A stretch of DNA of 64,000 nt from Escherichia coli (GTDB lineage: Bacteria; Pseudomonadota; Gammaproteobacteria; Enterobacterales; Enterobacteriaceae). The stretch is taken from NCBI RefSeq assembly GCF_024502345.1, contig NZ_JALDNN010000001.1, one strand, 5' to 3'. The notes beneath the pieces are model-generated. The model did not search any database. It had not been told where the DNA came from and worked only from the letters and a program-made list of their open reading frames with translations. Below are positions 2,773 to 63,972 of the stretch, in pieces. The position numbers and the translations under genes were made by a program. The stretch's first letter is position 1. Every line of letters starts with the position of its first letter.

Positions 2773-3201
2773 ATGTATAAGACAATCATTATGCCAGTTG
2801 ATGTATTTGAAATGGAATTGAGCGACAAAGCTGTTCGCCACGCTGAATTCCTCGCCCAGGATGACGGAGTTATTCATCTACTTCACGTACTACCCGGGTC
2901 AGCCAGCCTGAGCCTGCACCGTTTTGCCGCTGATGTGCGTCGTTTTGAAGAGCATCTGCAACATGAAGCAGAAGAACGTCTGCAAACGATGGTCAGCCAC
3001 TTCACCATCGATCCTTCCCGCATTAAACAACATGTCCGTTTTGGTAGCGTGCGGGATGAAGTCAATGAGTTGGCAGAAGAACTGGGGGCTGATGTTGTAG
3101 TTATTGGTTCTCGCAACCCATCGATTTCGACCCATCTGTTAGGTTCTAACGCCTCGAGCGTGATCCGCCACGCCAATCTGCCTGTACTGGTCGTTCGCTA
3201 A
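2773..3201 (+). CDS. uspG: Universal stress protein G, 142 aa
   Basis: ORF 2773..3201; [42 protein letters not shown]... matches UspG (YbdQ). Confidence 0.92.
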
Positions 3202-3220
3202 CAGATAAAAGTATTTATGC

Positions 3221-3253
3221 CGCCCTGCCTGGAACATCCCGGCAGGGCTTTTT
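3221..3253 (+). terminator. Rho-independent terminator of uspG (gccctgcctgg...cccggcagggc then TTTTT)
   Basis: Inverted repeat followed by a T-run just after the uspG stop. Confidence 0.65.
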
Positions 3254-3261
3254 AATGCCAT

Positions 3262-3296
3262 AAAAAAGCCGCCAGGTTTGACCCCGGCGGCTAAGC
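3262..3296 (-). terminator. Rho-independent terminator of ahpCF (minus strand: gccgccgggg...cctggcggc then TTTTTT)
   Basis: Inverted repeat plus T-run on the minus strand, just downstream of the ahpF stop at 3322. Confidence 0.65.
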
Positions 3297-3321
3297 AATT
3301 GCAGGTGAATCTTACTTCTTC

Positions 3322-4887
3322 TTATGCAGTTTTGGTGCGAATCAGGTAGTCAAAAGCACTCAGAGAGGCTTTGGCACCTTCGCCAGTGGCGATGATGATC
3401 TGCTTGTACGGAACCGTCGTACAGTCACCCGCTGCGAACACGCCTTTGACGTTGGTTTCGCATTTCGCATCAATGATAATCTCGCCCATGCGGTTACGTT
3501 CGACTGCGCCTTCCAGCCAGTTGGTGTTCGGCAGCAGACCAATCTGGACGAAAATACCGGCCAGTTCGATGTTGTGAATATCGCCGCTGACACGATCTCG
3601 ATATTCCAGACCAACGACTTTGCTGCCGTCGCCTTTCACTTCCGTGGTTTGCGCATTCAGAATAATGTCGACGTTTTTCAGGCTGCGCAGTTTGTCCTGC
3701 AGCACCTGGTCGGCTTTCATTTCTGGCGCAAATTCCAGCAGCGTTACGTGCTCAACGATACCCGCCAGGTCGATTGCCGCTTCCACGCCGGAGTTACCGC
3801 CGCCGATAACCGCTACGCGTTTGCCTTTAAACAGCGGGCCGTCGCAGTGCGGGCAGTAGGTCACGCCTTTGGTGCGATACTGATCTTCGCCCGGAACGTT
3901 CATGTTGCGCCATTTTGCTCCGGTCGCCACGATAATGCTGCGTGCTTTCAGTACCGCGCCAGAAGCTGTTTCAATCTGATGCAGACCACCTTCAACTGCT
4001 GCTGGGATCAGTTTGCTGGCGCTCTGGCTGTCGATCACATCAACGTCGTATTCATCAACGTGAACTTTCAGTGCGCCTGCCAACTTCTGCCCTTCAGTCT
4101 TCGGTACAGAAATGTAGTTTTCGATATCAACGGTATCGAGGATCTGACCACCAAAACGTTCGCCCATCAGACCGGTACGGATGCCTTTACGTGCGGAGTA
4201 AATTGCTGCCGCTGCACCCGCCGGGCCGGAACCAACGATTAATACGTCATAAGCATCACGCTTGTTCAGCTCTTCTGCCGCACGTTTTTCCGCGCCAGTA
4301 TCAATTTTGGCAACGATTTCAGTCAACGTCATGCGGCCCTGACCAAACTCTTTCCCGTTTACGAACACTGCCGGAACGCCCATCACGTTACGATCGGTGA
4401 TTTCGTTCTGGAAGGTGCCGCCATCAATTGCAGTGTGCTTGATGCGCGGGTTCAGTACGCTCATCAGGTTCAGCGCCTGCACCACGTCCGGGCAGTTGTG
4501 GCAAGAGAGCGAGTAATAGGTTTCGAATTCAAAATCACCGTCAATATGGCGAATCTGCTCCAGCAGAGACTGCGCTTCTTTCGACGGATGACCACCGGTC
4601 CACAGCAACGCCAGTACCAGCGAGGTGAACTCATGGCCCAGCGGGGAGCCTGCAAAACGTGGCCCCTGGTTGGAACCTGGGTTGGTGATCAGGAAAGACG
4701 GCTTACGCACTGGCAAGCTGTTATCTTCTTTAAAGGTGACTTTGTCTGACAGTTCTGCGATTTCAGCCAACAGTTCCTTGATTTCTGCCGATTTAGCGCT
4801 GTCATCCAGCGTGGCAATTAACTCAACAGGCTTGGTCAATTTCTCAAGGTAAGCCTTGAGTTGAGTTTTCATATTTGTGTCGAGCAT
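3322..4887 (-). CDS. ahpF: Alkyl hydroperoxide reductase subunit F (NADH-dependent peroxiredoxin reductase), 521 aa
   Basis: ORF 3322..4917; start refined to [17 protein letters not shown]; CxxC redox motif (CPHCDGP) and FAD/NAD-binding glycine motifs present. Confidence 0.93.
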
Positions 4888-5043
4888 GTTTATCTCCTGG
4901 GCTTTAAACATCATCATGCAAGCGGCCTCTACGGCTACCTGGATGCAGCTTGCATCATGGTGCGGGGAAGAAAATCGGGTGCCGCAGCACCCGAAGAATT
5001 AGGTGAATTTCCGAAGTATTTCGCGTCAGAGCAAGGCGGCTAG

Positions 5044-5128
5044 CCTGTGAATCCCCGGGAGCTTACACAAGTAAGTGACCGGGGTGAGCGGGCGACGCCA
5101 ACGCCGCTATGGCGTGAAAGACGAAGGA
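5044..5128. repeat. ERIC/IRU-type intergenic repeat (core gtgaatccccgggagcttacacaagtaagtgaccggggtgagcg)
   Basis: Match to the ERIC consensus core with its internal inverted repeat, in the ahpC-ahpF intergenic region. Confidence 0.7.
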
Positions 5129-5131
5129 AAT

Positions 5132-5695
5132 TTAGATTTTACCAACCAGGTCCAGAGACGGAGCCAGAGTTGCTTCACCTTCTTTCCATTTAGCCGGGCA
5201 AACTTCACCTGGGTGAGAAGCTACGTACTGTGCTGCTTTGATTTTACGCAGCAGGTCAGACGCGTCACGGCCAATGCCTTCAGCGGTAACTTCGATTGCC
5301 TGGATGATACCCTGCGGGTCAACAACGAAGGTCGCACGGTCAGCCAGACCTTCATCTTCACGCATGTTGTCGAAGTTACGGGTCAGGGCGCCAGTCGGGT
5401 CGCCGATCATCGCATATTTGATTTTAGCGATGGTTTCAGAGCTGCTGTGCCATGCTTTGTGGGTGAAGTGAGTATCGGTAGATACTGCGTATACGTCTAC
5501 GCCCAGTTTCTGCAGTTCTTCGTAGTGGTCAGCAACGTCACCCAGTTCGGTCGGGCATACGAAAGTAAAGTCAGCCGGGTAGAAGAAGAAGACGCTCCAG
5601 CGGCCTTCGGTATCTTTTTCGGTGATTTCGATGAATTCGCCGTTTTTGAATGCCTGGTTTTTAAAAGGTTTAATTTTGGTGTTAATCAAGGACAT
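5132..5695 (-). CDS. ahpC: Alkyl hydroperoxide reductase subunit C (2-Cys peroxiredoxin), 187 aa
   Basis: ORF 5132..5695; [51 protein letters not shown]... matches AhpC. Confidence 0.95.
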
Positions 5696-7924: not shown

Positions 7925-8185
7925 TATATAACCTCAGACAGCTACTATAACTTTCACCTATTTATTCACAGCGCGAATGAAAAATAAAACACTCTGCTTT
8001 TCAGTGTTTACTTTATAATTAACAGTCTTATCTCACTGATCACCCTGTAACGTTCAGAGAGCGTCTTCAGATGTCTATTTATAAAATTCCTCTTCCGCTC
8101 AATATTCTGGAAGCTGCACGAGAGCGTATTACCTGGACACTCAACACCCTACCCCGCGTTTGTGTCTCATTTTCTGGCGGCAAAG

Positions 8186-9242
8186 GGCTTTGTTGAATAA
8201 ATCGAACTTTTGCTGAGTTGAAGGATCAGATCACGTATCTTCCCGACAACGCAGACCGTTCCGTGGCAAAGCAAAAGTTCAAAATCACCAACTGGCCCAC
8301 CTACAATAAAGCCCTCATCAACCGTGGCTCCATAACTTTCTGGCTGGATGATGAAGCTATTCAGGCCTGGTATGAGTCAGCAACACCTTCTTCACGAGGC
8401 AGACCTCAGCGCTATTCTGACCTTGCCATCACGACTGTGCTGGTCATTAAACGCGTATTCAGGCTGACCCTGCGCGCTGCGCAGGGCTTTATTGATTCCA
8501 TTTTTTCTCTGATGAACGTTCCGCTACGCTGCCCGGATTACAGCTGTGTCAGCAGGCGGGCAAAGTCGGTTAATGTCAGTTTCAAAACGCCCACCCGGGG
8601 TGAAATCGCACACCTGGTAATTGATTCCACCGGGCTGAAGGTCTTCGGTGAAGGCGAGTGGAAAGTCAAAAAGCATGGCCAGGAACGCCGCCGTATCTGG
8701 CGTAAGCTGCATCTCGCCGTTGACAGTAAAACACATGAAATCATCTGCGCTGACCTGTCGCTGAACAACGTTACGGACTCAGAGGCCTTCCCCGGGTTAA
8801 TCCGGCAAACCCACCGGAAAATCAGGTCAGCCGCCGCCGATGGCGCTTACGATACCCGGCTATGTCACGATGAACTGCGGCGTAAGAAAATCAGCGCGCT
8901 TATCCCTCCCCGAAAAGGTGCGGGTTACTGGCCCGGTGAATATGCAGACCGTAACCGTGCAGTGGCTAATCAGCGAATGACCGGGAGTAATGCGCGGTGG
9001 AAATGGACAACAGATTACAACCGTCGCTCGATAGCGGAAACGGCGATGTACCGGGTAAAACAGCTGTTCGGGGGTTCACTGACACTGCGTGACTACGATG
9101 GTCAGGTTGCAGAGGCTATGGCCCTGGTACGAGCGCTGAACAAAATGACGAAAGCAGGTATGCCTGAAAGCGTGCGTATTGCCTGAAAACACAACCCGCT
9201 ACGGGGGAGACTTACCCGAAATCTGATTTATTCAACAAAGCC
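8186..9242 (+). mobile_element. IS903-type insertion sequence (IS5 family), 1057 bp, with 18-bp terminal inverted repeats ggctttgttgaataaatc; 9-bp target duplication gcggcaaag at 8177-8185 and 9243-9251
   Basis: Terminal inverted repeats at 8186-8203 and 9225-9242; identical 9-bp direct repeats flank the element; one transposase ORF inside. Confidence 0.9.
8263..9186 (+). CDS. IS903 transposase (DDE, IS5 family); likely GTG start giving 307 aa (ORF track starts at TTG 8218)
   Basis: ORF 8218..9186; [38 protein letters not shown]... matches IS903/IS102 transposase. Confidence 0.85.
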   Translation: MAKQKFKITNWPTYNKALINRGSITFWLDDEAIQAWYESATPSSRGRPQRYSDLAITTVLVIKRVFRLTLRAAQGFIDSIFSLMNVPLRCPDYSCVSRRAKSVNVSFKTPTRGEIAHLVIDSTGLKVFGEGEWKVKKHGQERRRIWRKLHLAVDSKTHEIICADLSLNNVTDSEAFPGLIRQTHRKIRSAAADGAYDTRLCHDELRRKKISALIPPRKGAGYWPGEYADRNRAVANQRMTGSNARWKWTTDYNRRSIAETAMYRVKQLFGGSLTLRDYDGQVAEAMALVRALNKMTKAGMPESVRIA

Positions 9243-10329
9243 GCGGCAAAGACTCTGGTTTAATGCTGCATCTGACAGCCGAACTTGCCCGACAAATGGG
9301 CAAAAAAATCTGCGTTTTGTTTATCGACTGGGAGGCGCAATTCTCTTGCACCATTAACTATGTTCAGTCCCTGCGCGAGTTGTACACCGATGTCATCGAA
9401 GAGTTTTACTGGGTTGCGCTCCCGCTTACGACGCAAAATTCCCTTTCACAATACCAACCCGAATGGCAGTGCTGGGAACCTGATGTCGAATGGGTGCGTC
9501 AGCCCCCGCAAGATGCGATAACCGATCCTGACTTTTTCTGCTTTTACCAGCCAGGCATGACCTTCGAACAATTTGTACGTGAGTTTGCCGAATGGTTTTC
9601 ACAAAAACGTCCGGCGGCGATGATGATCGGCATCCGTGCGGATGAGTCCTACAACCGTTTTGTCGCCATCGCCAGTTTAAATAAACAACGTTTTGCCGAC
9701 GATAAACCCTGGACTACGGCCGCACCAGGCGGTCATAGCTGGTACATTTATCCCATTTACGACTGGAAAGTGGCTGATATCTGGACCTGGTATGCAAATC
9801 ATCAAAGTCTCTGCAACCCACTGTATAACCTAATGTATCAGGCAGGCGTTCCTCTGCGTCATATGCGAATTTGCGAACCTTTTGGCCCGGAGCAACGACA
9901 AGGATTATGGCTCTATCACGTTATCGAACCGGATCGCTGGGCTGCTATGTGCGCACGAGTCAGCGGGGTAAAAAGTGGCGGCATTTACGCCGGACATGAC
10001 AATCATTTCTATGGGCATCGGAAAATCCTCAAGCCAGAACATTTAGACTGGCAAGAATATGCATTATTGCTGCTCAATAGCATGCCGGAAAAAACAGCTG
10101 AGCATTACCGCAATAAAATCGCCATTTATTTGCACTGGTATCAGAAAAAAGGCATCGAGGTTCCACAAACCCAGCAAGGGGACATTGGCGCGAAAGATAT
10201 CCCCTCCTGGCGGCGGATATGCAAAGTTTTACTCAATAACGATTACTGGTGTCGGGCATTATCATTTAGTCCTACGAAAGCGAAGAACTATCAGCGTTAT
10301 AACAAACGGATAAAAGGAAAACGTCAGGA

Positions 10330-36270: not shown

Positions 36271-36735
36271 CCGCAGCCATCACTGACTGCGGGCGAAAGT
36301 GTAAAGCAGGTGCCTTACCACTCTGACCTGACAACCGGATATGCGGGGATTGCTCCCCGCACAACGGCTACTTCTTCGGTTCGTAAGCGAGAACAGCCTT
36401 AAACTCAATATTACGTTCCTTTACGGTGAACTCACACAGCGAGTCTCCGACCAGAAGCGTAAATCCCAGCACCGTCAAACACAGCACTATGACTGCCACA
36501 AGGGCATATTTCGTCAGCATGTTTATATTGCCTCCATGCGAAGAAGGGACTACCATCCGAGTTGTTCAGGTTCGGAGTGGCAGCCCCAGGATTGATAGAA
36601 ATATCTCCTGGGGCTTCATCTTTCCAAACCTCAGAGTTAACCTGAAACCGGAAAGCTTCAGGCACCCGCCGTTATCTTACCCTTCCTTAGCAAAATAGCT
36701 GTTTATTTATACAGTGAATCCTGTTTCGGACTTCT
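36271..36735 (-). other. Intact hok/sok-type type I toxin-antitoxin locus (copy 1), about 93% identical to the IS186-associated copy at 36769..36859 plus 38199..38588
   Basis: About 465-bp unit containing the mok/hok overlapping reading frames and flanking conserved leader and 3' sequences; repeated with point differences around IS186. Confidence 0.6.
36368..36520 (-). CDS. Hok-family small membrane toxin, 50 aa ([50 protein letters not shown]), with overlapping mok frame 36368..36556
   Basis: ORF 36368..36556; the last 50 codons are a canonical Hok toxin; differs by K to R at one position from the copy at 38220..38372. Confidence 0.75.
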
Positions 36736-36859
36736 GTCGGCAAAACTCATCATTGCTCTTAAAACGAAACCGCCCGCAGCCATCACTGACCGCGGGCGAA
36801 AGTGTAAAGCAGGTGCCTTACCATCCTGACCTGACAACCGGATATGCGGGGATTACTCC

Positions 36860-38198
36860 CATAAGCGCTAACTTAAGGGTTGAACCATCTGAAGAATGCG
36901 ACGCCTCGGTGCCTCGTTAAGACGATGCCTCGCGTTCTTCAATTGCGTTTTGTAGGCTGTCAGGGATACTGTCCCACGAATGGCCACCTGTAAGCTCCAG
37001 ATGACCATTTTTGTTATTCTCCACAACGAGTTAGTTCTTCTTTTCGGATCCGGCACTTCTGGGGGGGAAATCCAGCGATGGCTGGATTATGTCGTCAATT
37101 AAAAATGCGGCGAGTAGATTAGCAAATATCCACGCTTTCGCGAGTTCAGGTTCCTTTGCACGCAAAGCATCCAGGTGCAGCAAACTTTTGAGCCGCTTAA
37201 AAGCCAGTTCAATTTGCCATCGCAGACGGTAACAATCAGCCACTTGCTCTGCTGAATATTCATCTTCCGGTAATGATGTTAGCAATAGCACATGGCCCGC
37301 TGCTTCCAGCGTTTCCGCCTGAACTACTCGTCCTTTTCGACGATTCTCGCTGAGCAGTCGGGTTTTACTGATTAATGCTTTTTCGGGAGGAAGTGATACG
37401 GCAATGAGACGTGCCGGAAAGGGAGCTCCGGCTTTTTTATTACCTGAATTGCCTATCATTACAGTGGTTTCACCGTTCTTACCGCAATCCAGCCCGCGCA
37501 GAAAACCCATCATGTCAAAGCGCATTCCTTCTGCAGTTAACCAGCGCAATCCTCGCCAGTGAACCCGGACGATATAATCAGCTTCTCCAAAAGCAAGTGA
37601 GCGGATACATTCGGGACGCGAACCGAATCCCCGGTCAGCAATGCGTATCTCGTCTGCCGTTTGCGCAAATCGGTCCAGCCGTTCAGCGTCTCTGCTGTCG
37701 GTTAGCTCAAAATCAGTGAACTGACAGGTATGAGGATCATATCCCATATGTAGTCGCCATTCAGCGCTGCCGCCCCCGGGCGCACTGATTGCTGTTCCAT
37801 CGACAAGACGCAATCTCTTTCCGCTTGTACAACCCGTAACTGCGGCGCGCACAGCAAGTGTTTGTGCGGCAAGTATGCCAAACCAGTCGGCGGCATTCCG
37901 CAGCCGCTTCAGGAGAGCCACGTCAGATAATGTTGCAACGTCATGGAGCTGAGCCCATGCAGTGACTTCACGTAATGACATCCCCCCGGGGCCGTAAGCC
38001 AGCCCCAGACGTAGCAGAGTTGCAGCATCACGAATTTCGCGGCGGCGGGTTAGAGCCCCGGCATTACGTGCCGAAGTATCCAGTTCTTCGGGCTTACCAA
38101 TATGGGCCAGAATTGCTGACCAGTTATCGTGAGAGTAATTCATCGGCACGTTAAATCATATCAGGCGTAATACCACAACCCTTAAGTTAGCGCTTATG
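36860..38198 (-). mobile_element. IS186 (IS4 family), about 1339 bp, terminal inverted repeats cataagcgctaacttaagggttg; 10-bp target duplication ggattactcc at 36850-36859 and 38199-38208
   Basis: Inverted repeats at both ends, flanking direct repeat, and an InsL transposase ORF inside. Confidence 0.88.
37031..38143 (-). CDS. insL: IS186 transposase InsL, 370 aa
   Basis: ORF 37031..38149; (MP)MNYSHDNWSAILAHIGKPEELDTSARNAGALTRRREIRDAATLLRLGLAYG... matches IS186 transposase. Confidence 0.9.
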   Translation of the reverse strand: MNYSHDNWSAILAHIGKPEELDTSARNAGALTRRREIRDAATLLRLGLAYGPGGMSLREVTAWAQLHDVATLSDVALLKRLRNAADWFGILAAQTLAVRAAVTGCTSGKRLRLVDGTAISAPGGGSAEWRLHMGYDPHTCQFTDFELTDSRDAERLDRFAQTADEIRIADRGFGSRPECIRSLAFGEADYIVRVHWRGLRWLTAEGMRFDMMGFLRGLDCGKNGETTVMIGNSGNKKAGAPFPARLIAVSLPPEKALISKTRLLSENRRKGRVVQAETLEAAGHVLLLTSLPEDEYSAEQVADCYRLRWQIELAFKRLKSLLHLDALRAKEPELAKAWIFANLLAAFLIDDIIQPSLDFPPRSAGSEKKN

Positions 38199-38219
38199 GG
38201 ATTACTCCCCGCACAACGG

Positions 38220-38372
38220 CTACTTCTTCGGTTCGTAAGCGAGAACAGCCCTGAACTCAATATTACGTTCCTTCACCGTAAACTCACACAGCGAGTCTCC
38301 GACCAGAAGCGTAAATCCCAGTACCGTCAAACACAGCACTATGACTGCCACAAGGGCATATTTCGTCAGCAT
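38220..38372 (-). CDS. hokE: Hok-family toxin HokE, 50 aa; IS186 lies about 21 bp downstream of its stop codon
   Basis: ORF 38220..38516; the last 50 codons [50 protein letters not shown]. Confidence 0.75.
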
Positions 38373-38812
38373 GTTTATATTGCCTCCATGCGAAGAAGGA
38401 ACTACCATCCAAATTGTCTGGTTTGGAGTGGCAGCCCCAGGGTTGATAGAAATATCTCCTGGGGCTTCATCTTTCCAGACCTCAGAGTAAACCTGAAACC
38501 GGAAAGCTTCAGGCACCCGCCGTTATCTTACCCTTCCTCAACAAAATAGCTGTTTATTTATACAGTAAATCCTGTTTCGGACTTCTCACTCCTCATTTAA
38601 TCAACTGAAGCTGAGCCCGTTTTTTCTGCATGCCTCAATCGTCAAAATTCTTCGCCACCAGCCAGCCGTGCCATAACTTGTCACATTGCAAAAGTAGCCA
38701 AATTGCTTCAGGCACCATCAGTTCACCATCACCAAAAAAAGAAACATTCCAGAACTTCCGCATCTCGCCCAGCCGCTCCGACTTCTATACTGAATAGAAA
38801 ACGCCAACATAA

Positions 38813-55276: not shown

Positions 55277-58235
55277 CCTTAATCGCGTCATCGGATGGTC
55301 TGGTTTACTGCTGACGTCTTTATTGAGTACCAGCGCACTCGCAGACAATATCGGCACCAGCGCAGAAGAGCTGGGGCTGAGCGATTATCGCCATTTTGTT
55401 ATTTATCCCCGTCTCGATAAGGCGCTGAAGGCACAGAAAAATAACGACGAAGCAACCGCCATCCGCGAATTTGAATATATACACCAGCAGGTGCCGGATA
55501 ATATTCCGCTGACTTTATACCTTGCGGAAGCCTATCGCCATTTTGGTCATGATGACCGGGCGCGGCTGTTGCTTGAGGATCAACTGAAACGTCACCCAGG
55601 AGATGCCCGACTTGAGCGCAGTCTGGCGGCTATTCCGGTTGAAGTGAAAAGCGTTACAACTGTTGAAGAACTGCTTGCCCAGCAAAAAGCGTGCGATGCT
55701 GCGCCGACCCTGCGTTGTCGCAGTGAAGTCGGGCAGAATGCCCTGCGGCTTGCACAGTTACCTGTCGCCAGAGCGCAACTGAACGATGCGACGTTTGCTG
55801 CATCGCCGGAAGGAAAAACGCTGCGAACCGATCTGCTGCAACGGGCAATCTACCTGAAACAATGGTCCCAGGCAGATACGCTATACAATGAAGCACGCCA
55901 GCAGAACACATTAAGCGCGGCAGAACGCCGTCAGTGGTTTGACGTGCTTCTTGCCGGGCAGCTGGACGATCGGATCCTGGCACTGCAATCACAGGGGATC
56001 TTCACCGATCCTCAGTCATATATTACTTACGCGACCGCGCTGGCTTATCGTGGCGAAAAAGCACGCCTCCAGCATTATCTCATTGAAAATAAGCCGCTGT
56101 TTACCACGGACGCACAAGAGAAAAGTTGGCTCTATCTGTTATCTAAATACAGCGCCAACCCCGTTCAGGCATTGGCGAATTATACGGTGCAGTTTGCCGA
56201 TAACCGCCAGTATGTTGTTGGCGCGACGCTACCGGTGCTGTTAAAAGAAGGTCAGTACGACGCAGCGCAAAAACTGCTCGCCACCCTCCCCGCCAATGAA
56301 ATGCTTGAGGAGCGTTATGCTGTCAGCGTGGCGACCCGTAACAAGGCTGAAGCTCTGCGTCTGGCACGATTGCTGTATCAGCAAGAACCGGCAAATCTTA
56401 CCCGCCTGGATCAACTGACCTGGCAACTGATGCAGAACGAGCAGTCACGCGAAGCTGCCGATTTATTGCTGCAACGCTATCCTTTCCAGGGCGATGCGCG
56501 TGTCAGCCAGACTTTAATGGCGCGACTGGCGTCTCTGCTGGAAAGTCATCCTTACCTGGCAACGCCGGCGAAGGTGGCGATTTTATCGAAACCCTTACCG
56601 CTGGCGGAGCAACGTCAGTGGCAAAGTCAGTTGCCGGGTATTGCAGATAATTGCCCGGCAATAGTTCGCTTGCTGGGCGATATGTCGCCTTCCTACGATG
56701 CTGCCGCCTGGAACCGTCTGGCAAAGTGTTATCGGGACACGCTACCCGGTGTGGCGCTGTATGCATGGCTTCAGGCCGAACAACGACAACCGAACGCCTG
56801 GCAACATCGTGCGGTAGCCTATCAGGCGTATCAGGTTGAGGACTACGCCACCGCACTGGCGGCCTGGCAGAAAATCAGTCTTCACGACATGAGCAATGAG
56901 GATCTGCTTGCTGCTGCCAATACCGCCCAGGCGGCAGGAAATGGTGCAGCTCGCGATCGCTGGCTACAACAGGCAGAACAACGTGGACTGGGAAACAATG
57001 CCCTCTACTGGTGGCTGCATGCGCAACGTTACATTCCTGGTCAGCCGGAACTCGCACTGAGCGATCTCACGCGCTCAATCAATATTGCGCCTTCTGCCAA
57101 CGCTTACGTTGCGCGGGCGACAATTTATCGCCAACGTCATAATGTCCCGGCGGCGGTGAGTGATTTGCGCGCCGCGCTGGAACTGGAACCGAATAATAGC
57201 AACATCCAGGCAGCGCTTGGTTACGCCTTGTGGGATAGCGGTGATATCGCACAGTCGCGGGAAATGCTCGAACAGGCGCATAAAGGGCTACCGGACGATC
57301 CGGCACTGATCCGACAACTGGCCTATGTGAACCAGCGTCTGGATGACATGCCTGCGACGCAGCACTACGCCCGGCTGGTGATTGATGACATTGATAATCA
57401 GGCGCTGATAACCCCACTGACCCCAGAGCAAAATCAGCAACGCTTCAATTTCCGCCGTTTGCATGAGGAGGTCGGTCGCCGCTGGACGTTCAGTTTCGAT
57501 TCTTCCATCGGCTTGCGTTCCGGCGCAATGAGTACCGCTAACAATAATGTCGGCGGCGCAGCGCCAGGGAAAAGCTATCGTAGCTACGGACAACTGGAAG
57601 CCGAGTACCGCATCGGACGCAATATGCTGCTGGAAGGCGACCTGCTCTCAGTTTATAGCCGCGTCTTTGCCGATACCGGAGAAAACGGGGTGATGATGCC
57701 GGTGAAAAATCCGATGTCCGGCACCGGTCTGCGCTGGAAGCCGCTGCGCGATCAGATCTTTTTCCTCGCCGTCGAACAGCAGTTGCCGCTGAACGGGCAA
57801 AATGGCGCATCCGATACCATGCTGCGCGCCAGCGCCTCATTCTTTAATGGCGGCAAATACAGCGACGAATGGCACCCGAACGGTTCAGGCTGGTTTGCCC
57901 AAAACCTGTACCTCGATGCGGCGCAATATATCCGCCAGGATATTCAGGCGTGGACGGCAGATTATCGCGTCAGCTGGCATCTGAAGGTAGCTAACGGACA
58001 GACTATTGAGCCTTACGCTCACGTTCAGGACAACGGCTATCGTGATAAAGGCACTCAGGGCGCGCAGCTTGGCGGAGTCGGGGTCCGCTGGAATATCTGG
58101 ACCGGCGAGACGCACTACGACGCCTGGCCGCACAAAGTCAGTCTCGGCGTCGAGTATCAACATACCTTTAAGGCGATTAATCAACGTAACGGAGAGCGCA
58201 ACAACGCGTTTCTCACCATTGGAGTGCACTGGTAA
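55263..58235 (+). CDS. nfrA: NfrA (phage N4 adsorption protein A; outer-membrane TPR-containing protein), 990 aa
   Basis: ORF 55242..58235 trimmed to MKENNLNRVIGWSGLLLTSLLSTSALA (signal peptide); overlaps the nfrB 3' end. Confidence 0.93.
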   Translation: MKENNLNRVIGWSGLLLTSLLSTSALADNIGTSAEELGLSDYRHFVIYPRLDKALKAQKNNDEATAIREFEYIHQQVPDNIPLTLYLAEAYRHFGHDDRARLLLEDQLKRHPGDARLERSLAAIPVEVKSVTTVEELLAQQKACDAAPTLRCRSEVGQNALRLAQLPVARAQLNDATFAASPEGKTLRTDLLQRAIYLKQWSQADTLYNEARQQNTLSAAERRQWFDVLLAGQLDDRILALQSQGIFTDPQSYITYATALAYRGEKARLQHYLIENKPLFTTDAQEKSWLYLLSKYSANPVQALANYTVQFADNRQYVVGATLPVLLKEGQYDAAQKLLATLPANEMLEERYAVSVATRNKAEALRLARLLYQQEPANLTRLDQLTWQLMQNEQSREAADLLLQRYPFQGDARVSQTLMARLASLLESHPYLATPAKVAILSKPLPLAEQRQWQSQLPGIADNCPAIVRLLGDMSPSYDAAAWNRLAKCYRDTLPGVALYAWLQAEQRQPNAWQHRAVAYQAYQVEDYATALAAWQKISLHDMSNEDLLAAANTAQAAGNGAARDRWLQQAEQRGLGNNALYWWLHAQRYIPGQPELALSDLTRSINIAPSANAYVARATIYRQRHNVPAAVSDLRAALELEPNNSNIQAALGYALWDSGDIAQSREMLEQAHKGLPDDPALIRQLAYVNQRLDDMPATQHYARLVIDDIDNQALITPLTPEQNQQRFNFRRLHEEVGRRWTFSFDSSIGLRSGAMSTANNNVGGAAPGKSYRSYGQLEAEYRIGRNMLLEGDLLSVYSRVFADTGENGVMMPVKNPMSGTGLRWKPLRDQIFFLAVEQQLPLNGQNGASDTMLRASASFFNGGKYSDEWHPNGSGWFAQNLYLDAAQYIRQDIQAWTADYRVSWHLKVANGQTIEPYAHVQDNGYRDKGTQGAQLGGVGVRWNIWTGETHYDAWPHKVSLGVEYQHTFKAINQRNGERNNAFLTIGVHW

Positions 58236-59126
58236 ATGCGTAAGTTCATTTTCGTATTGCTGACACTGCTTTTGGTCAGCCCTTTTTCCTTTGCGATGAA
58301 AGGTATTATCTGGCAACCACAAAACCGTGATAGTCAGGTTACCGATACCCAGTGGCAGGGGCTGATGAGTCAGTTACGTTTGCAAGGCTTCGATACCTTG
58401 GTTTTGCAATGGACCCGTTACGGCGATGCATTCACCCAGCCAGAACAGCGCGCGTTATTGTTTAAGCGTGCCGCAGCTGCGCAACAGGCTGGCCTGAAGC
58501 TGATTGTCGGGCTGAACGCCGATCCGGAATTTTTTATGCACCAGAAACAGTCGTCCGCAGCGCTGGAAAGCTATCTTAATCGCCTGCTGGCTGCCGATCT
58601 CCAGCAAGCCAGATTATGGAGCGCCGCGCCTGGCATAACGCCGGATGGCTGGTACATCAGCGCGGAAATTGACGACCTGAACTGGCGCAGCGAAGCTGCC
58701 CGTCAGCCTTTGCTAACATGGTTAAACAACGCGCAGCGGCTGATTAGCGATGTTTCAGCAAAACCGGTTTATATCAGTAGTTTTTTCGCCGGAAACATGT
58801 CGCCCGATGGCTATCGCCAACTGCTGGAACACGTTAAAGCAACCGGCGTTAATGTTTGGGTACAGGATGGCAGCGGCGTGGATAAACTGACCGCTGAACA
58901 GCGTGAACGTTATCTACAGGCCAGCGCCGATTGCCAAAGTTCCGCCCCAGCAAGCGGCATTGTTTATGAACTGTTTGTCGCCGGCAAAGGCAAAACCTTT
59001 ACAGCGAAACCGAAACCGGACGCAGAAATTGCCTCGCTGTTAGCGAAACGTTCCTCTTGCGGTAAAGACACGCTCTATTTCTCTCTGCGCTATTTGCCCG
59101 TCGCGCACGGCATTCTCGAGTATTAA
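58236..59126 (+). CDS. ybcH: YbcH (DUF4434 family, secreted), 296 aa
   Basis: ORF 58236..59126; starts 1 nt after the nfrA stop, so likely co-transcribed. Confidence 0.85.
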   Translation: MRKFIFVLLTLLLVSPFSFAMKGIIWQPQNRDSQVTDTQWQGLMSQLRLQGFDTLVLQWTRYGDAFTQPEQRALLFKRAAAAQQAGLKLIVGLNADPEFFMHQKQSSAALESYLNRLLAADLQQARLWSAAPGITPDGWYISAEIDDLNWRSEAARQPLLTWLNNAQRLISDVSAKPVYISSFFAGNMSPDGYRQLLEHVKATGVNVWVQDGSGVDKLTAEQRERYLQASADCQSSAPASGIVYELFVAGKGKTFTAKPKPDAEIASLLAKRSSCGKDTLYFSLRYLPVAHGILEY

Positions 59127-59308
59127 ATCTCCTCCAGGTAAGTCGGGTACGACCTGGCTTACCTCTTTCGCTCTCGTCAGAATTCCATCAAGATTAATTG
59201 CTAAAAAGCATGCTAAAGAAAGAAGATCGTTATCGGCGAACGGGCCGATCACTCATGCAGGAAGCATAGATCCTTTGAGCGGAGTTTCTGATATCTGAGG
59301 AGTGCGAA

Positions 59309-60070
59309 ATGCAATTGAGCAGCAGTGAACCTTGCGTGGTGATCCTGACCGAAAAAGAGGTAGAGGTAAGCGTCAATAACCATGCTACGTTTACCCTTCC
59401 GAAAAACTACCTGGCCGCCTTCGCGTGCAACAATAACGTCATTGAACTCTCAACGTTAAATCACGTATTAATCACCCACATCAACCGTAACATCATCAAC
59501 GATTATCTGTTGTTTTTAAATAAGAACTTAACCTGTGTAAAGCCCTGGTCGCGGCTGGCTACCCCGGTTATCGCTTGTCATAGCCGTACACCGGAAGTGT
59601 TCCGGCTAGCCGCCAACCACAGCAAGCAGCAACCCAGCAAACCCTGCGAAGCGGAGTTGACGCGCGCATTGCTTTTTACCGTATTGTCTAACTTTCTTGA
59701 GCAATCGCGGTTTATTGCCCTACTGATGTATATCTTACGCAGCAGCGTCCGCGACAGCGTCTGCCGCATTATTCAAAGCGATATTCAGCACTACTGGAAT
59801 CTGCGAATTGTCGCCAGTTCGCTATGTTTAAGCCCCAGCCTGCTCAAAAAGAAATTAAAAAACGAAAATACCAGCTATAGCCAGATTGTCACAGAGTGTC
59901 GTATGCGTTACGCCGTACAGATGTTATTGATGGATAACAAAAATATCACTCAGGTGGCGCAATTATGTGGCTATAGCAGCACGTCGTACTTTATCTCTGT
60001 TTTTAAGGCGTTTTACGGCCTGACACCGTTGAATTATCTCGCCAAACAGCGACAAAAAGTGATGTGGTGA
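59309..60070 (+). CDS. envY: AraC-family transcriptional regulator EnvY, 253 aa
   Basis: ORF 59309..60070; C-terminal AraC-type helix-turn-helix (...NITQVAQLCGYSSTSYFISVFKAFYGLTPLNYL). Confidence 0.88.
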   Translation: MQLSSSEPCVVILTEKEVEVSVNNHATFTLPKNYLAAFACNNNVIELSTLNHVLITHINRNIINDYLLFLNKNLTCVKPWSRLATPVIACHSRTPEVFRLAANHSKQQPSKPCEAELTRALLFTVLSNFLEQSRFIALLMYILRSSVRDSVCRIIQSDIQHYWNLRIVASSLCLSPSLLKKKLKNENTSYSQIVTECRMRYAVQMLLMDNKNITQVAQLCGYSSTSYFISVFKAFYGLTPLNYLAKQRQKVMW

Positions 60071-60114
60071 AGAGCAAAGCGGAACGGATAAGACGGGGTT
60101 AAATGAAGAAGAAA

Positions 60115-60159
60115 TGGCGCGCCCTGCAGGATTCGAACCTGCGGCCCACGACTTAGAAG
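60115..60159 (-). pseudogene. pauD: 3' fragment of a tRNA-Arg(UCU) gene (argU-like attachment-site remnant, pauD-like); acceptor/T-arm through the anticodon region only
   Basis: tggcgcgccctgcaggattcgaacctgcggcccacgacttagaag is the reverse complement of the 3' 45 nt of tRNA-Arg(UCU); the 5' half is absent. Confidence 0.7.
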
Positions 60160-60581
60160 TTCCTAGAACGACATTTTAAGTCAACAAATTACCGCGCCAT
60201 CTCTGCGCTCATACGTCCCACTACCTCAAAACATGTAAAGCCTTGCAAGCCATTGTGAGGCCTTATGTGTCTCAGTTTTGTCCCTCTTTTTTGTACTAAA
60301 AAACATAGCAATTGAGGATAAACCTCATGCTATTTTCGCTTATATGCCTTTAAAGGCATGGCGCTTAAATAGATAAAAACACCACAAAATCATAAAAAAC
60401 CACACAGTAAAACCGCAACATAAAACAATAACAGATAATTAAACCAAAAACAGATAGCGCATTGTGATAATCATTCAATACTAAACAAAATATAAACAGT
60501 GGAGCAATATGTGATTGACTCATTAAGTTAGATATAAAAAATACATATTCAATCATTAAAACGATTGAATGGAGAACTTTT

Positions 60582-60832
60582 ATGCGGGCGAAACTTCTGG
60601 GAATAGTTCTGACAACCCCTATTGCGATCAGCTCTTTTGCTTCTACCGAGACTATATCGTTTACTCCTGACAACATAAATGCGGACATTAGTCTTGGAAC
60701 TCTGAGCGGAAAAACAAAAGAGCGCGTTTATCTAGCTGAAGAAGGAGGCCGAAAAGTCAGTCAACTCGACTGGAAATTCAATAACGCTGCAATTATTAAA
60801 GGTGCAATTAATTGGGATTTGATGCCCCAGAT
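60582..60832 (+). pseudogene. ompT: Outer membrane protease OmpT, truncated after about codon 84 by IS903 (only the signal peptide and first about 60 mature residues remain)
   Basis: ORF 60582..60863; MRAKLLGIVLTTPIAISSFASTETISFTPDNINADISLGTLSGKTKERVYLAEEGGRKVSQLDWKFNNAAIIKGAINWDLMPQ then reads into the IS903 inverted repeat. Confidence 0.85.
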
Positions 60833-61889
60833 GGCTTTGTTGAATAAATCGAACTTTTGCTGAGTTGAAGGATCAGATCACGTATCTTCCCGACAACGCA
60901 GACCGTTCCGTGGCAAAGCAAAAGTTCAAAATCACCAACTGGCCCACCTACAATAAAGCCCTCATCAACCGTGGCTCCATAACTTTCTGGCTGGATGATG
61001 AAGCTATTCAGGCCTGGTATGAGTCAGCAACACCTTCTTCACGAGGCAGACCTCAGCGCTATTCTGACCTTGCCATCACGACTGTGCTGGTCATTAAACG
61101 CGTATTCAGGCTGACCCTGCGCGCTGCGCAGGGCTTTATTGATTCCATTTTTTCTCTGATGAACGTTCCGCTACGCTGCCCGGATTACAGCTGTGTCAGC
61201 AGGCGGGCAAAGTCGGTTAATGTCAGTTTCAAAACGCCCACCCGGGGTGAAATCGCACACCTGGTAATTGATTCCACCGGGCTGAAGGTCTTCGGTGAAG
61301 GCGAGTGGAAAGTCAAAAAGCATGGCCAGGAACGCCGCCGTATCTGGCGTAAGCTGCATCTCGCCGTTGACAGTAAAACACATGAAATCATCTGCGCTGA
61401 CCTGTCGCTGAACAACGTTACGGACTCAGAGGCCTTCCCCGGGTTAATCCGGCAAACCCACCGGAAAATCAGGTCAGCCGCCGCCGATGGCGCTTACGAT
61501 ACCCGGCTATGTCACGATGAACTGCGGCGTAAGAAAATCAGCGCGCTTATCCCTCCCCGAAAAGGTGCGGGTTACTGGCCCGGTGAATATGCAGACCGTA
61601 ACCGTGCAGTGGCTAATCAGCGAATGACCGGGAGTAATGCGCGGTGGAAATGGACAACAGATTACAACCGTCGCTCGATAGCGGAAACGGCGATGTACCG
61701 GGTAAAACAGCTGTTCGGGGGTTCACTGACACTGCGTGACTACGATGGTCAGGTTGCAGAGGCTATGGCCCTGGTACGAGCGCTGAACAAAATGACGAAA
61801 GCAGGTATGCCTGAAAGCGTGCGTATTGCCTGAAAACACAACCCGCTACGGGGGAGACTTACCCGAAATCTGATTTATTCAACAAAGCC
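60833..61889 (+). mobile_element. Second IS903-type element, 1057 bp, same orientation as the copy at 8186..9242 and apparently identical; no target-site duplication (flanks gccccagat / tcgctgaaa)
   Basis: Same 18-bp terminal inverted repeats at 60833-60850 and 61872-61889; left flank is ompT, right flank is the interior of an IS3-family element. Confidence 0.88.
60910..61833 (+). CDS. IS903 transposase (copy 2), 307 aa from GTG (ORF track 60865..61833)
   Basis: Translation identical to the transposase at 8263..9186. Confidence 0.85.
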
Positions 61890-62080
61890 TCGCTGAAAGT
61901 GGAATGTATCCATGGAGAACACTTTATCAGCCGGGAAATAATGCGGGCAACGGTGTTTAATTATATCGAATGTGATTACAATCGGTGGCGGCGGCACAGT
62001 TGGTGTGGCGGCCTCAGTCCGGAACAATTTGAAAACCAGAACCTCGCTTAGGCCTGTGTCCATATTACGTGGGTAGGATC
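61890..62080 (+). mobile_element. 3' remnant (about 190 bp) of an IS3-family element: last about 50 codons of the OrfB transposase (...[28 protein letters not shown]) plus right inverted repeat ending ...ggtaggatca
   Basis: Open frame from the IS903 junction to a TAG at 62047-62049, followed by an IS3-group-like terminal repeat ending CA. Confidence 0.6.
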
Positions 62081-62331
62081 ACACCTTCTTCCACACTTTC
62101 TGGAACATTTAGGTAACAACCATCTGGATATTGGTGTTGGAACTGGGTTTTACCTTACTCACGTACCTGAGAGTAGTCTGATATCTTTAATGGATTTGAA
62201 CGAAGCTAGCCTGAACGCGGCATCTACAAGGGCTGGGGAATCAAAAATTAAACATAAAATTAACCATTGATGTAGCCCCCTGAAACACCGGACAGTAGCT
62301 GTATCTCCAGATAAGAGATAGGCTTGAATAT

Positions 62332-62727
62332 ATGTCTAACACTAACGCCAATTTTGAGATGACCGGGATCCTGTTAGGGCAAGAAGTCCGTAAACGTAAA
62401 ACTCCTCAGGAGAAGATCGCCATTATCCAGCAGACGATGGAGCCGGGTATGAATGTCTCCCATGTCGCCCGCCTGCATGGTATCCAGCCCAGCCTGCTGT
62501 TTAAGTGGAAGAAGCAATATCAGGAAGGCAGCCTCACCGCCGTTGCGGCTGGAGAGGAAGTCGTTCCTGCTTCTGAGCTTACTGCTGCTCTGAAGCAGGT
62601 CCGGGAGCTTCAGCGCCTTCTGGGCAAGAAAACGATGGAAGTTGAGATCCTGAAAGAAGCCGTGGAGTACGGTCAGTCGCGAAAATGGATAGCGCACGCG
62701 CCCTTGTTGCCAAAGGACGGGGAATAG
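62332..62727 (+). CDS. IS2-group transposase OrfA (helix-turn-helix DNA-binding subunit), 131 aa
   Basis: ORF 62332..62727; clearly related to, but not identical with, IS2 InsC as I recall it (shared blocks [46 protein letters not shown]...LKEAVEYG). Confidence 0.8.
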
Positions 62728-63566
62728 CCATGGTCAGCCGGACCATGGGCGTGTCGCGTGCGCAACTGTCACTGCGGATTAACCGTTCTGCCGACTGGCA
62801 GGACAGGCGCTGTAACCGGCGTAATGAAGAAGCAGACGCAGAAATACTGTCGGCTATCCTCAACATTATCAGCGATATGCCGAGTTATGGTTATCGACGC
62901 GTGTGGGGCATCCTGCGCAAGCAACGTCGCACAGAGGGACAGCCACCTGTGAATGCCAAACGGCTTTACAGGATAATGAGCGAGCATAACCTGTTGTTGT
63001 TGCATCACAAACCAGAGCGACCGAAGCGTGAACATAAGGGCAAGATAGCGGTGGCAGAAAGCGATATGCGCTGGTGTTCAGATGGCTTCGAGTTCGGCTG
63101 CGACAACGGCGAAAAACTGCGGGTAACGTTCGCGCTGGACTGCTGCGACCGTGAGGCCATAGACTGGGCAGCAAGCACGGGAGGCTATGACAGTTCGACC
63201 GTGCAGGATGTGATGCTGAGGTCGGTGGAAAAGCGCTTCGGCGACAGGTTGCCCGACACAGCGGTGCAGTGGCTGACGGATAACGGTTCAGCGTATACCG
63301 CGTATGAAACGCGGAGGTTCGCGAGAGAGCTGAATCTGGAGCCCTGCACAACAGCGGTGAGCAGCCCGCAGAGTAATGGCATGGCCGAACGGTTCGTGAA
63401 AACGATGAAAGAAGACTATATCGCGTTCATGCCAAAACCGGATGTGAGAACAGCACTGCGAAACCTTGCAGTAGCGTTCACGCATTACAATGAAAACCAC
63501 CCGCACAGCGCGCTGGGATATCACTCCCCGAGGGAATACCGGCGGCAGCGGACATCGTTAACTTAA
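62685..63566 (+). CDS. IS2-group transposase OrfB (DDE integrase domain), 293 aa as an ORF; probably expressed as an OrfAB fusion by -1 frameshifting
   Basis: ORF 62685..63566 in the -1 frame relative to orfA with a 43-nt overlap; conserved [42 protein letters not shown] blocks. Confidence 0.8.
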
Positions 63567-63672
63567 GATACAAAAGCTGTTCGGAGATGGAGGGTCAAGA
63601 TCACATAAAATTAACCATGATGTTTTTGAACCTTATCCCGCGGCGTTACATGGTCAATTTGATTCCATTTCC

Positions 63673-63972
63673 ATGTTTTACCTTCTTCACTGCCTGCCTG
63701 GAAATATATCTACAAAAAGCTGTGTAATACGCAATGCGGCGCAGGCCTTAACTGACGATGGAACTCTATACGGAGCCACAATTCTTGGCGATGGAGTTGT
63801 GCACAATAGCTTCGGTCAAAAACTGATGCGCATTTACAATCAGAAAGGCATCTTTTCAAACACAAAAGATTCCGAAGAAGGCTTAACACATATACTCTCA
63901 GAGCATTTCGAGAATGTTAAAACCAAGGTTCAAGGTACTGTAGTAATGTTTTCCGCTTCAGGGAAAAAATAG
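63673..63972 (+). CDS. Hypothetical protein, 99 aa, no recognisable family
   Basis: ORF 63673..63972 just beyond the IS2-group element; identity unknown; could be a spurious ORF. Confidence 0.25.
   Translation: MFYLLHCLPGNISTKSCVIRNAAQALTDDGTLYGATILGDGVVHNSFGQKLMRIYNQKGIFSNTKDSEEGLTHILSEHFENVKTKVQGTVVMFSASGKK

Follow-up and report, generated by a model that had tools for sequence, protein, structure and literature searches.

A deletion of about 4.1 kb, anchored on IS903B, that includes three quarters of ompT in a prophage remnant of Escherichia coli

The truncated ompT gene and its neighbouring insertion sequences

In the window, which is the whole 64-kb stretch of Escherichia coli DNA analysed here, the 5' part of ompT runs into a complete copy of IS903B (copy B). 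The insertion sequence is followed by the remnant of an IS3 element and by a methyltransferase gene that is interrupted twice, by IS3 and then by a 1336-bp element of the IS2 group. In DLP12-type prophage remnants, this ybcY-like methyltransferase gene naturally lies next to ompT. Outside this stretch, the window is collinear with the rna-ahpCF-ent-fep-cus-nfrBA-ybcH-envY region of E. coli, and almost all of the genes there are intact. The idea of a heavily degraded, Shigella-like genome was considered and found unsupported. Damage among the 48 neighbouring genes examined is confined to ybdN (IS903B insertion), ybdR (5' truncation), and ompT. The features discussed below are the following.

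8186..9242, + strand: IS903B copy A, a simple insertion in ybdN with the 9-bp duplication gcggcaaag at 8177-8185 and 9243-9251
60115..60159, - strand: 45-nt 3' fragment of tRNA-Arg between envY and ompT, the right attachment site (attR) of the DLP12-like prophage remnant that carries ompT
60582..60832, + strand: 5' fragment of ompT, 251 nt, encoding the signal peptide and mature residues 1-63 (by alignment, NCBIfam, and PDB 1I78)
60833..61889, + strand: IS903B copy B, 1057 bp, with the transposase ORF at 60865-61833 and without a target-site duplication
61890..62081, + strand: IS3 remnant, the last 192 bp of the element (nt 1067-1258), with the C-terminus of OrfB and the right inverted repeat
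62082..62267, + strand: 5'-side part of a class I SAM-methyltransferase gene (prophage, ybcY-like), gene nt 130-315
62268..63603, + strand: IS2-group (IS3-family) element, 1336 bp, with OrfA at 62332-62727 and OrfB at 62685-63566
63604..63972, + strand: 3' part of the methyltransferase gene, nt 301-669, including a duplicated stretch of 15 bp

Neither ARAGORN nor Rfam calls a full tRNA at 60115..60159. The 45-nt fragment is of the argU type.

The ompT gene starts at 60582, and in the alignment its identity with intact E. coli ompT genes extends to 60832 (gene nt 251), after which the sequences diverge. The break point corresponds to codon 83 (Gln) followed by 'AT'. An earlier, sequence-only reading of this DNA had placed the end of OmpT after ...AINWDLMPQ, straight into the left inverted repeat of IS903 at 60833, which is correct to the base. 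The other coordinates and sequence statements of that reading also proved correct. The ompT-derived ORF (60582-60863) continues from the 83 OmpT residues into 10 residues read from the insertion sequence, MALLNKSNFC, and ends at a stop codon inside IS903B (60861-60863). Its product is thus composed of a 20-residue signal peptide, 63 of the 297 mature residues (1-63), and 10 IS-derived residues. A profile search aligns it with positions 1-86 of the 317 positions of the NCBIfam omptin profile, and residues 1-63 of the 297 in the OmpT structure PDB 1I78 are matched. The full-length 10-stranded barrel of an omptin (about 297 mature residues) is absent; two close relatives of the window, L056 and L057, encode 317 aa.

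The catalytic residues of OmpT, Asp83/Asp85/Asp210/His212 (PDB 1I78 positions), lie beyond the break, and most of the barrel strands are gone. For these reasons, the remaining OmpT is predicted to be non-functional, which makes ompT a pseudogene and the chromosomal locus OmpT-null. The proposal of an OmpT-protease-deficient genotype holds for the chromosomal locus, where the catalytic residues are lost. The OmpT phenotype at strain level depends also on omptin paralogues (ompP, a plasmid ompT) that may be present elsewhere in the genome, outside the window.

The exact 93-aa OmpT-IS903 fusion product is encoded by nine public contigs, and the left junction is thus independently supported. These contigs show that the truncated ompT allele circulates in public data. 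The fusion and the same truncated ompT are carried by L058 (GCA_050022275.1), in which a single mismatch over 13,646 bp separates it from the window. The allele is also found in a metagenome contig, L005, whose backbone differs by 0.5%.

Copy B has the anatomy of IS903, with a length of about 1057 bp, perfect 18-bp repeats, and one intact DDE transposase (about 307 aa). The terminal repeats, GGCTTTGTTGAATAAATC, lie at 60833-60850 on the + strand and 61872-61889 on the - strand with 0 mismatches. Further matches to GGCTTTGTTGAATAAATC in the 64-kb window, for which the chance expectation is 0, are confined to both ends of copy A. The transposase ORF is intact and reaches 357 bits (cut-off 140) with the IS5-family profile NCBIfam NF033579, which it covers in full (1-289). 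At the DNA level, copy B has 98.7-99.3% identity to copies annotated IS903B in RefSeq, where near-identical copies are labelled 'IS5-like element IS903B family transposase'. Copies A and B, of 1057 bp each, are 100% identical, lie in the same orientation, and are 52 kb apart. IS903B looks active because there is an identical copy with a proper 9-bp duplication, an intact transposase, and two intact ends, which shows recent activity of IS903B in the source genome.

The 9-bp flanks of copy B, gccccagat on the left and tcgctgaaa on the right, had been described as different. Re-inspection confirms this, and comparison of the two flanks in every register gives no match and no target-site duplication around copy B. 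A 9-bp duplication is present at copy A and at the IS903B copies of plasmid NZ_CP145709.1 and of NT1N25, and only copy B lacks one among these. The missing duplication is a property of the history of copy B and not of the IS903B element.

At its other end (61889), copy B abuts the IS3-family remnant that had been estimated at about 190 bp and is exactly 192 bp long. The remnant shows 100% identity to the 3' part of IS3 in plasmid NZ_CP145709.1, ends in ...GGGTAGGATCA, and matches positions 323-369 of the 369 in the NCBIfam profile transpos_IS3. Its right terminal repeat ending in ...CA, the C-terminus of OrfB, and a 4-bp duplication mark it as IS3, of which nt 1-1066 are absent. The right junction in the window (...GGATCA/CACCTTC, with the slash at the joint) fits an IS3 insertion with the 4-bp duplication CACC. 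The CACC at the start of the methyltransferase part at 62082 is the right copy of this duplication, and the left copy is found in L056 and L057.

The IS2-group element farther to the right is bordered at 62253-62267 and 63604-63618 by a target duplication of 15 bp, CATAAAATTAACCAT, and these 15 bp are single-copy in intact methyltransferase genes. IS2 is known for target duplications of 5 bp. Full-length copies of the IS2-group element (n = 17) have duplications of 15-16 bp in eight cases, of 5 bp in four, and none in five. The spacing of the duplications is bimodal, at 5 or 15 bp, a difference of one helical turn. No mention of 15-bp target duplications for the IS3 family was found in the literature searched.

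The locus in close relatives and the IS3 junction on a plasmid

Three arrangements from ompT to the methyltransferase gene occur across E. coli. The two genes are directly adjacent in L002, are separated by appY and a tfa remnant in L001, as in K-12, or are separated by a gene for a 494-aa alpha/beta-hydrolase and a tfa remnant in L008. An ancestral map drawn from allele similarity was ambiguous, with the 5' part of ompT nearest to the hydrolase type and the methyltransferase gene nearest to the appY type, and was settled by relatives. None of the complete E. coli genomes is closer to the window backbone than 98.8-98.9%; near-identical draft and metagenome contigs were found by an exact-sequence look-up of the NfrA protein of the window. 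Across the 13,570 bases at 47263-60832 of the window, L056 (GCA_036619395.1 and 11 similar places) and L057 (ERZ1755925) show 2-3 mismatches.

In L056 and L057, an intact 317-aa ompT is followed by the hydrolase gene, the tfa (tail-fibre-assembly) remnant, nt 1-133 of the methyltransferase gene, and the left end of IS3. The left IS3 junction joins ...GGAACACC to TGATCTTACCCAGC..., and the contigs stop about 390-460 bp into IS3. This left junction and the right junction of the window make up one insertion, after methyltransferase nt 133, with the 4-bp duplication CACC, so IS3 was in the methyltransferase gene before ompT was damaged.

Comparison with genomes that carry an intact ompT had been suggested as a check, and L056 and L057 now define the deleted interval. 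Set against L057, the window is missing 3,052 bp of native DNA and, in addition, IS3 nt 1-1066. The native part consists of ompT nt 252-954, a 186-bp spacer, the 1,485-bp hydrolase gene, 183 bp, the 306-bp tfa remnant, 56 bp, and methyltransferase nt 1-133. The claim that the remainder of ompT had been removed together with the DNA farther on is thus borne out, as the relatives carry an intact ompT and 3 kb that are absent from the window. Compared with L056 and L057, the locus has the anatomy of an adjacent deletion, with an intact insertion sequence, absent intervening DNA, and synteny that is kept on both sides. The deletion is real; it spans about 4.1 kb, takes in three quarters of ompT, and has IS903B as the anchor of one of its ends.

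Contigs of the same lineage that have no more than 3 mismatches in about 13 kb present the locus in three states: prophage-free, with an intact ompT, and with the IS903-anchored truncation. L055, which has no prophage remnant at all, is identical to the window up to 60159 (3 mismatches in 12,897 bp) and continues into fimZ/sfm.

The IS903/IS3 junction was searched for with a 200-bp probe in 5,426 complete E. coli genomes and the best-scoring 5,000 PLSDB records. Among these, only one record, plasmid p2-S1-CAM-01-A (NZ_CP145709.1), gives a full match. This pAA-type plasmid, with aat dispersin-export genes, carries a complete IS3 with IS903B inside it at the position and in the orientation seen in the window. 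The 9 bp tcgctgaaa are present on both sides, as in a simple insertion. The right junction of the plasmid is identical to that of the window, with 100% identity over the last 131 bp of IS903 and the 192 bp of IS3 and with the same 9-bp target. Unlike the window, the plasmid keeps IS3 nt 1-1075 and both copies of the duplication, and its host is not closely related to the lineage of the window. The IS903B copies of plasmid and window differ at 32 of 1057 positions, 27 of which fall in a 205-bp patch. Thus, if the junction is of shared descent, a patch must later have been converted between IS903 variants; if not, the insertions are independent. Comparable IS903 mosaicism is seen in L005.

The preferred target motif of IS903 is WTTYA-N9-TRAAW (PMC2577343). 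The IS3 site and the ompT site each agree with it at only 3 of 10 positions, and an IS903 hot spot was rejected on this ground as the cause of the shared IS3 site. Because the site does not resemble the motif, an independent second insertion of IS903 at the same IS3 base is unlikely (about 1 in 2,500 within IS3). Since NZ_CP145709.1 has a simple insertion at the identical IS3 position, the right (IS3) junction is probably the original insertion and the ompT junction the new joint. The first 9 bp of the IS3 remnant, tcgctgaaa, would then be the surviving copy of the IS903 target duplication.

The left junction between ompT and IS903 occurs in 0 of the 5,426 complete genomes, in which IS903B lies within ompT only in NT1N25/NT1W25, at another site. 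The right junction between IS3 and the methyltransferase gene has 0 records in complete genomes, and exact-pattern scans of genome and metagenome contigs gave 0 matches for both junctions. Look-up of a 50-aa right-side IS3 ORF returned other truncated IS3 copies only, and look-up of a 62-aa antisense ORF that spans the junction found no record. A 44-aa N-terminal fragment of the methyltransferase retrieved 23 contigs that end at nt 132/133 on unrelated backbones. These ends were rejected as evidence, as control codons show contig ends to be uninformative.

Origin of the deletion

The most likely mechanism, with a probability of about one half, is an IS903 adjacent deletion by intramolecular replicative transposition from an IS903B resident in IS3. 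IS903 adjacent deletions are described as common and as dependent on the replicative (cointegrate) pathway, and missing target duplications are ascribed to adjacent deletions or to recombination between insertion sequences (PMC11708052). As the close relatives show, the DLP12-like remnant of the lineage at first read attR, ompT, alpha/beta-hydrolase, tfa remnant, and methyltransferase with IS3 after nt 133. As the plasmid with the identical junction suggests, IS903B would then have inserted in IS3 at nt 1067-1075 and duplicated tcgctgaaa. The left end of the resident IS903B would have attacked ompT nt 243-251 (gccccagat), about 4.1 kb away on the same molecule. During such a deletion, IS903B and its right flank would remain in place. 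The intervening segment, comprising IS3 nt 1-1075, methyltransferase nt 1-133, the tfa remnant, the hydrolase gene, and ompT nt 252-954, would leave as a circle. The left flank would be replaced by ompT, so that the 9-bp flanks would no longer match. No genome with IS903B inside the methyltransferase-borne IS3 and an intact ompT was found, the contigs of the relatives stopping inside IS3. The event is an ordinary, known kind of gene loss caused by insertion sequences.

The sequence-only reading had offered an IS903 adjacent deletion or recombination between two copies. An IS903-associated deletion is supported, and the two routes give an identical sequence. Recombination between copies A and B of the window is ruled out, as copy A retains its own perfect duplication. 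A tentative second place falls to RecA-dependent recombination between two direct IS903B copies, with the second at ompT nt 243-251, which would leave one hybrid copy indistinguishable from what is observed. Recombination between insertion sequences is a standard cause of missing duplications (PMC11708052), and copies of an active, 100% identical IS903B are ideal substrates for it. Additionally, IS903B does enter ompT elsewhere, at nt 765 in NT1N25, with the target duplication ATTCTGTTG. However, this route requires an extra event, the insertion of another copy within 4 kb and in the correct orientation, and a simple insertion of IS903 at ompT nt 243-251 is absent from the 5,426 complete genomes. 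Look-up of the 3' fragment of ompT did retrieve 11 public contigs that start exactly at GCCCCAGAT or CCCCAGAT, at the putative duplication, and so resemble a simple-insertion intermediate. They were rejected as chance, given that control fragments from two arbitrary nearby codons retrieved 12 and 18 contigs. The products of adjacent deletion and direct-copy recombination being the same, the choice of sub-mechanism is one of parsimony only, and the adjacent deletion is favoured because it takes one event fewer.

It is improbable that the order of events was reversed, with IS903B entering ompT first and a rightward adjacent deletion, or a one-step landing at the break, ending at IS3 nt 1066/1067. 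A rightward deletion is mechanistically as possible as a leftward one, and one-step events with an 'IS at the centre of a deletion' and without duplications have been proposed (PMC11708052). However, the right junction would have to match an independent insertion on the plasmid by chance, at the exact base and in the same orientation (about 1 in 2,500 given IS3), and at a site that does not match the preferred IS903 motif (PMC2577343). Least probable of all is an assembly artefact, in which two IS903B copies, in ompT and in IS3 with 4 kb between them, were collapsed as a repeat. The collapse of two direct identical repeats would yield exactly the observed sequence, and the independent short-read contigs confirm the left junction only. 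Against this, the window is contiguous through several repeats of at least 1 kb (two identical IS903B copies, IS186, and the IS2-group element), which implies long reads or finishing able to span a 6-kb unit. In L005, the base that follows the end of IS903 is T, which agrees with tcgctgaaa, and not the G expected from a duplication, a weak argument given that the interior of the L005 insertion sequence is a different variant.

Significance and comparison with known systems

What is added here is the exact interval, the order of events, and the circulation of the allele in public data. The importance beyond strain annotation is small, and the structure will not surprise a specialist. The locus is a natural example in which relatives and a plasmid 'fossil' permit the base-by-base reconstruction of an IS-anchored deletion. 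For annotation, an insertion sequence without a target duplication marks a lost interval and not a simple insertion. A chromosomal ompT pseudogene may affect the cleavage of cationic antimicrobial peptides and the degradation of recombinant proteins. Pseudogenes of ompT are common in public assemblies and arise, for example, through frameshifts, through an IS5 at about nt 150, or through 5' deletions. It is doubtful that OmpT loss was under selection in a human-gut lineage and was recurrent or transferred, with an IS3::IS903B module shuttling between pAA plasmid and chromosome. If it were so, the loss would be analogous to the antivirulence 'black hole' of Shigella and EIEC.

The locus resembles described IS903 adjacent deletions in that the insertion sequence is intact and has one original flank, the other flank was formerly a few kb away, the target duplication is missing, and the intervening DNA is gone (PMC11708052). 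Unlike in those cases, the donor IS903B here would have resided inside IS3, the event is reconstructed from natural isolates, and the sub-mechanism is chosen by parsimony.

In NT1N25/NT1W25 (NZ_CP075484.1), an IS903B that is 98.7% identical inactivates the same gene in the same orientation. However, that copy lies at nt 765 within a perfect 9-bp duplication, the 3' part of ompT and appY are kept, and nothing is deleted.

In Shigella and EIEC, the complete absence of ompT is the rule and forms a pathoadaptive 'black hole' (Nakata et al. 1993, reviewed in PMC5723341). The window holds no indication of an invasive pathotype. What it shares with Shigella and EIEC is the loss of an OmpT encoded in a DLP12-type prophage remnant. 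Whereas those pathotypes lack the gene or the prophage entirely, a loss tied to IcsA-dependent spread (PMC5723341), the window has a 4-kb IS-anchored deletion only.

IS903B copies and the nested IS3::IS903B module

Besides the IS903B copy that truncates ompT (1057 bp, window 60833-61889) and is joined to the last 192 bp of IS3, the following insertion-sequence copies bear on the history of the element:

Window 8186-9242: second IS903B copy, same orientation as the ompT copy; simple insertion in ybdN with a 9-bp duplication, gcggcaaag
Plasmid NZ_CP145709.1, segment 84411-94610, positions 2969-5292 of the segment: nested IS3::IS903B on a pAA-type plasmid

The second copy, which interrupts a PAPS-reductase-like gene (ybdN), shares 100% identity with the ompT copy. 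An identical copy present as a simple insertion with its 9-bp duplication implies that IS903B was recently active in this genome. The IS903/IS3 junction and the 9-bp target on NZ_CP145709.1, a plasmid bearing the enteroaggregative E. coli marker genes aatPABC, are exactly those of the window. Among complete E. coli genomes and the best-scoring 5,000 PLSDB records, this plasmid is the sole record with that junction. The shared junction suggests movement of the nested module from one replicon or strain to another.

The ompT region within the lineage and in public assemblies

For two 11-12-kb core segments of the window, none of the 5,426 complete E. coli genomes in RefSeq exceeds a nucleotide identity of 98.8-98.9%, whereas draft and metagenome contigs reach 99.98%. 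The lineage therefore has no representative among the complete genomes. Within it, the ompT region varies among four contigs that differ from window 47263-60832 by no more than 3 bases in about 13 kb; several contigs of the lineage come from human-gut metagenomes. One (L055) lacks the prophage remnant at this region, two (GCA_036619395.1 and ERZ1755925) have an intact ompT, and the fourth (GCA_050022275.1) shares the IS903-truncated ompT of the window. The truncated allele also occurs in a metagenome contig (L005) whose backbone differs from the window at 28 sites upstream of 60100 and which is identical to it from attR (60115-60159) onward.

Public E. coli assemblies frequently carry an inactivated ompT. 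An OmpT fragment with an internal start, when looked up, matched 240 index blocks, and ten public contigs (L045-L054) have ompT damaged in its 5' part. Damage types include 1-bp indels, a 34-bp 5' deletion, and IS5 at about nt 150.

Other loci in the window

The hokE/sok toxin-antitoxin locus is present twice within 36346-38586, in copies of about 390 bp that are 95% identical, with Rfam sok matches at 36512-36667 and 38364-38518; at the corresponding place, hokE occurs once in a reference genome. Between the two copies lies:

Window 37031-38149: 372-aa transposase of an IS186-like element

Separately, ybdR (zinc-dependent alcohol dehydrogenase, 1824-2773) is missing its first 137 codons, and the ybdR-uspG interval is about 0.5 kb shorter than in strain EC01.

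The IS2-group element and its target duplications

Window 62268-63603: IS2-group (IS3-family) element with no assigned name; flanking repeats at 62253-62267 and 63604-63618

The element is flanked by a 15-bp target duplication, CATAAAATTAACCAT, a sequence that occurs once in intact methyltransferase genes. Of 17 full-length copies of the element, eight have target duplications of 15-16 bp and four of 5 bp; the other five have none. A literature search found no report of 15-bp target duplications in the IS3 family. Of the 5,426 complete genomes of E. coli, 162 carry the element. Its closest named relative is ISEc48 (~78% identity), and its target duplications are unusually long.
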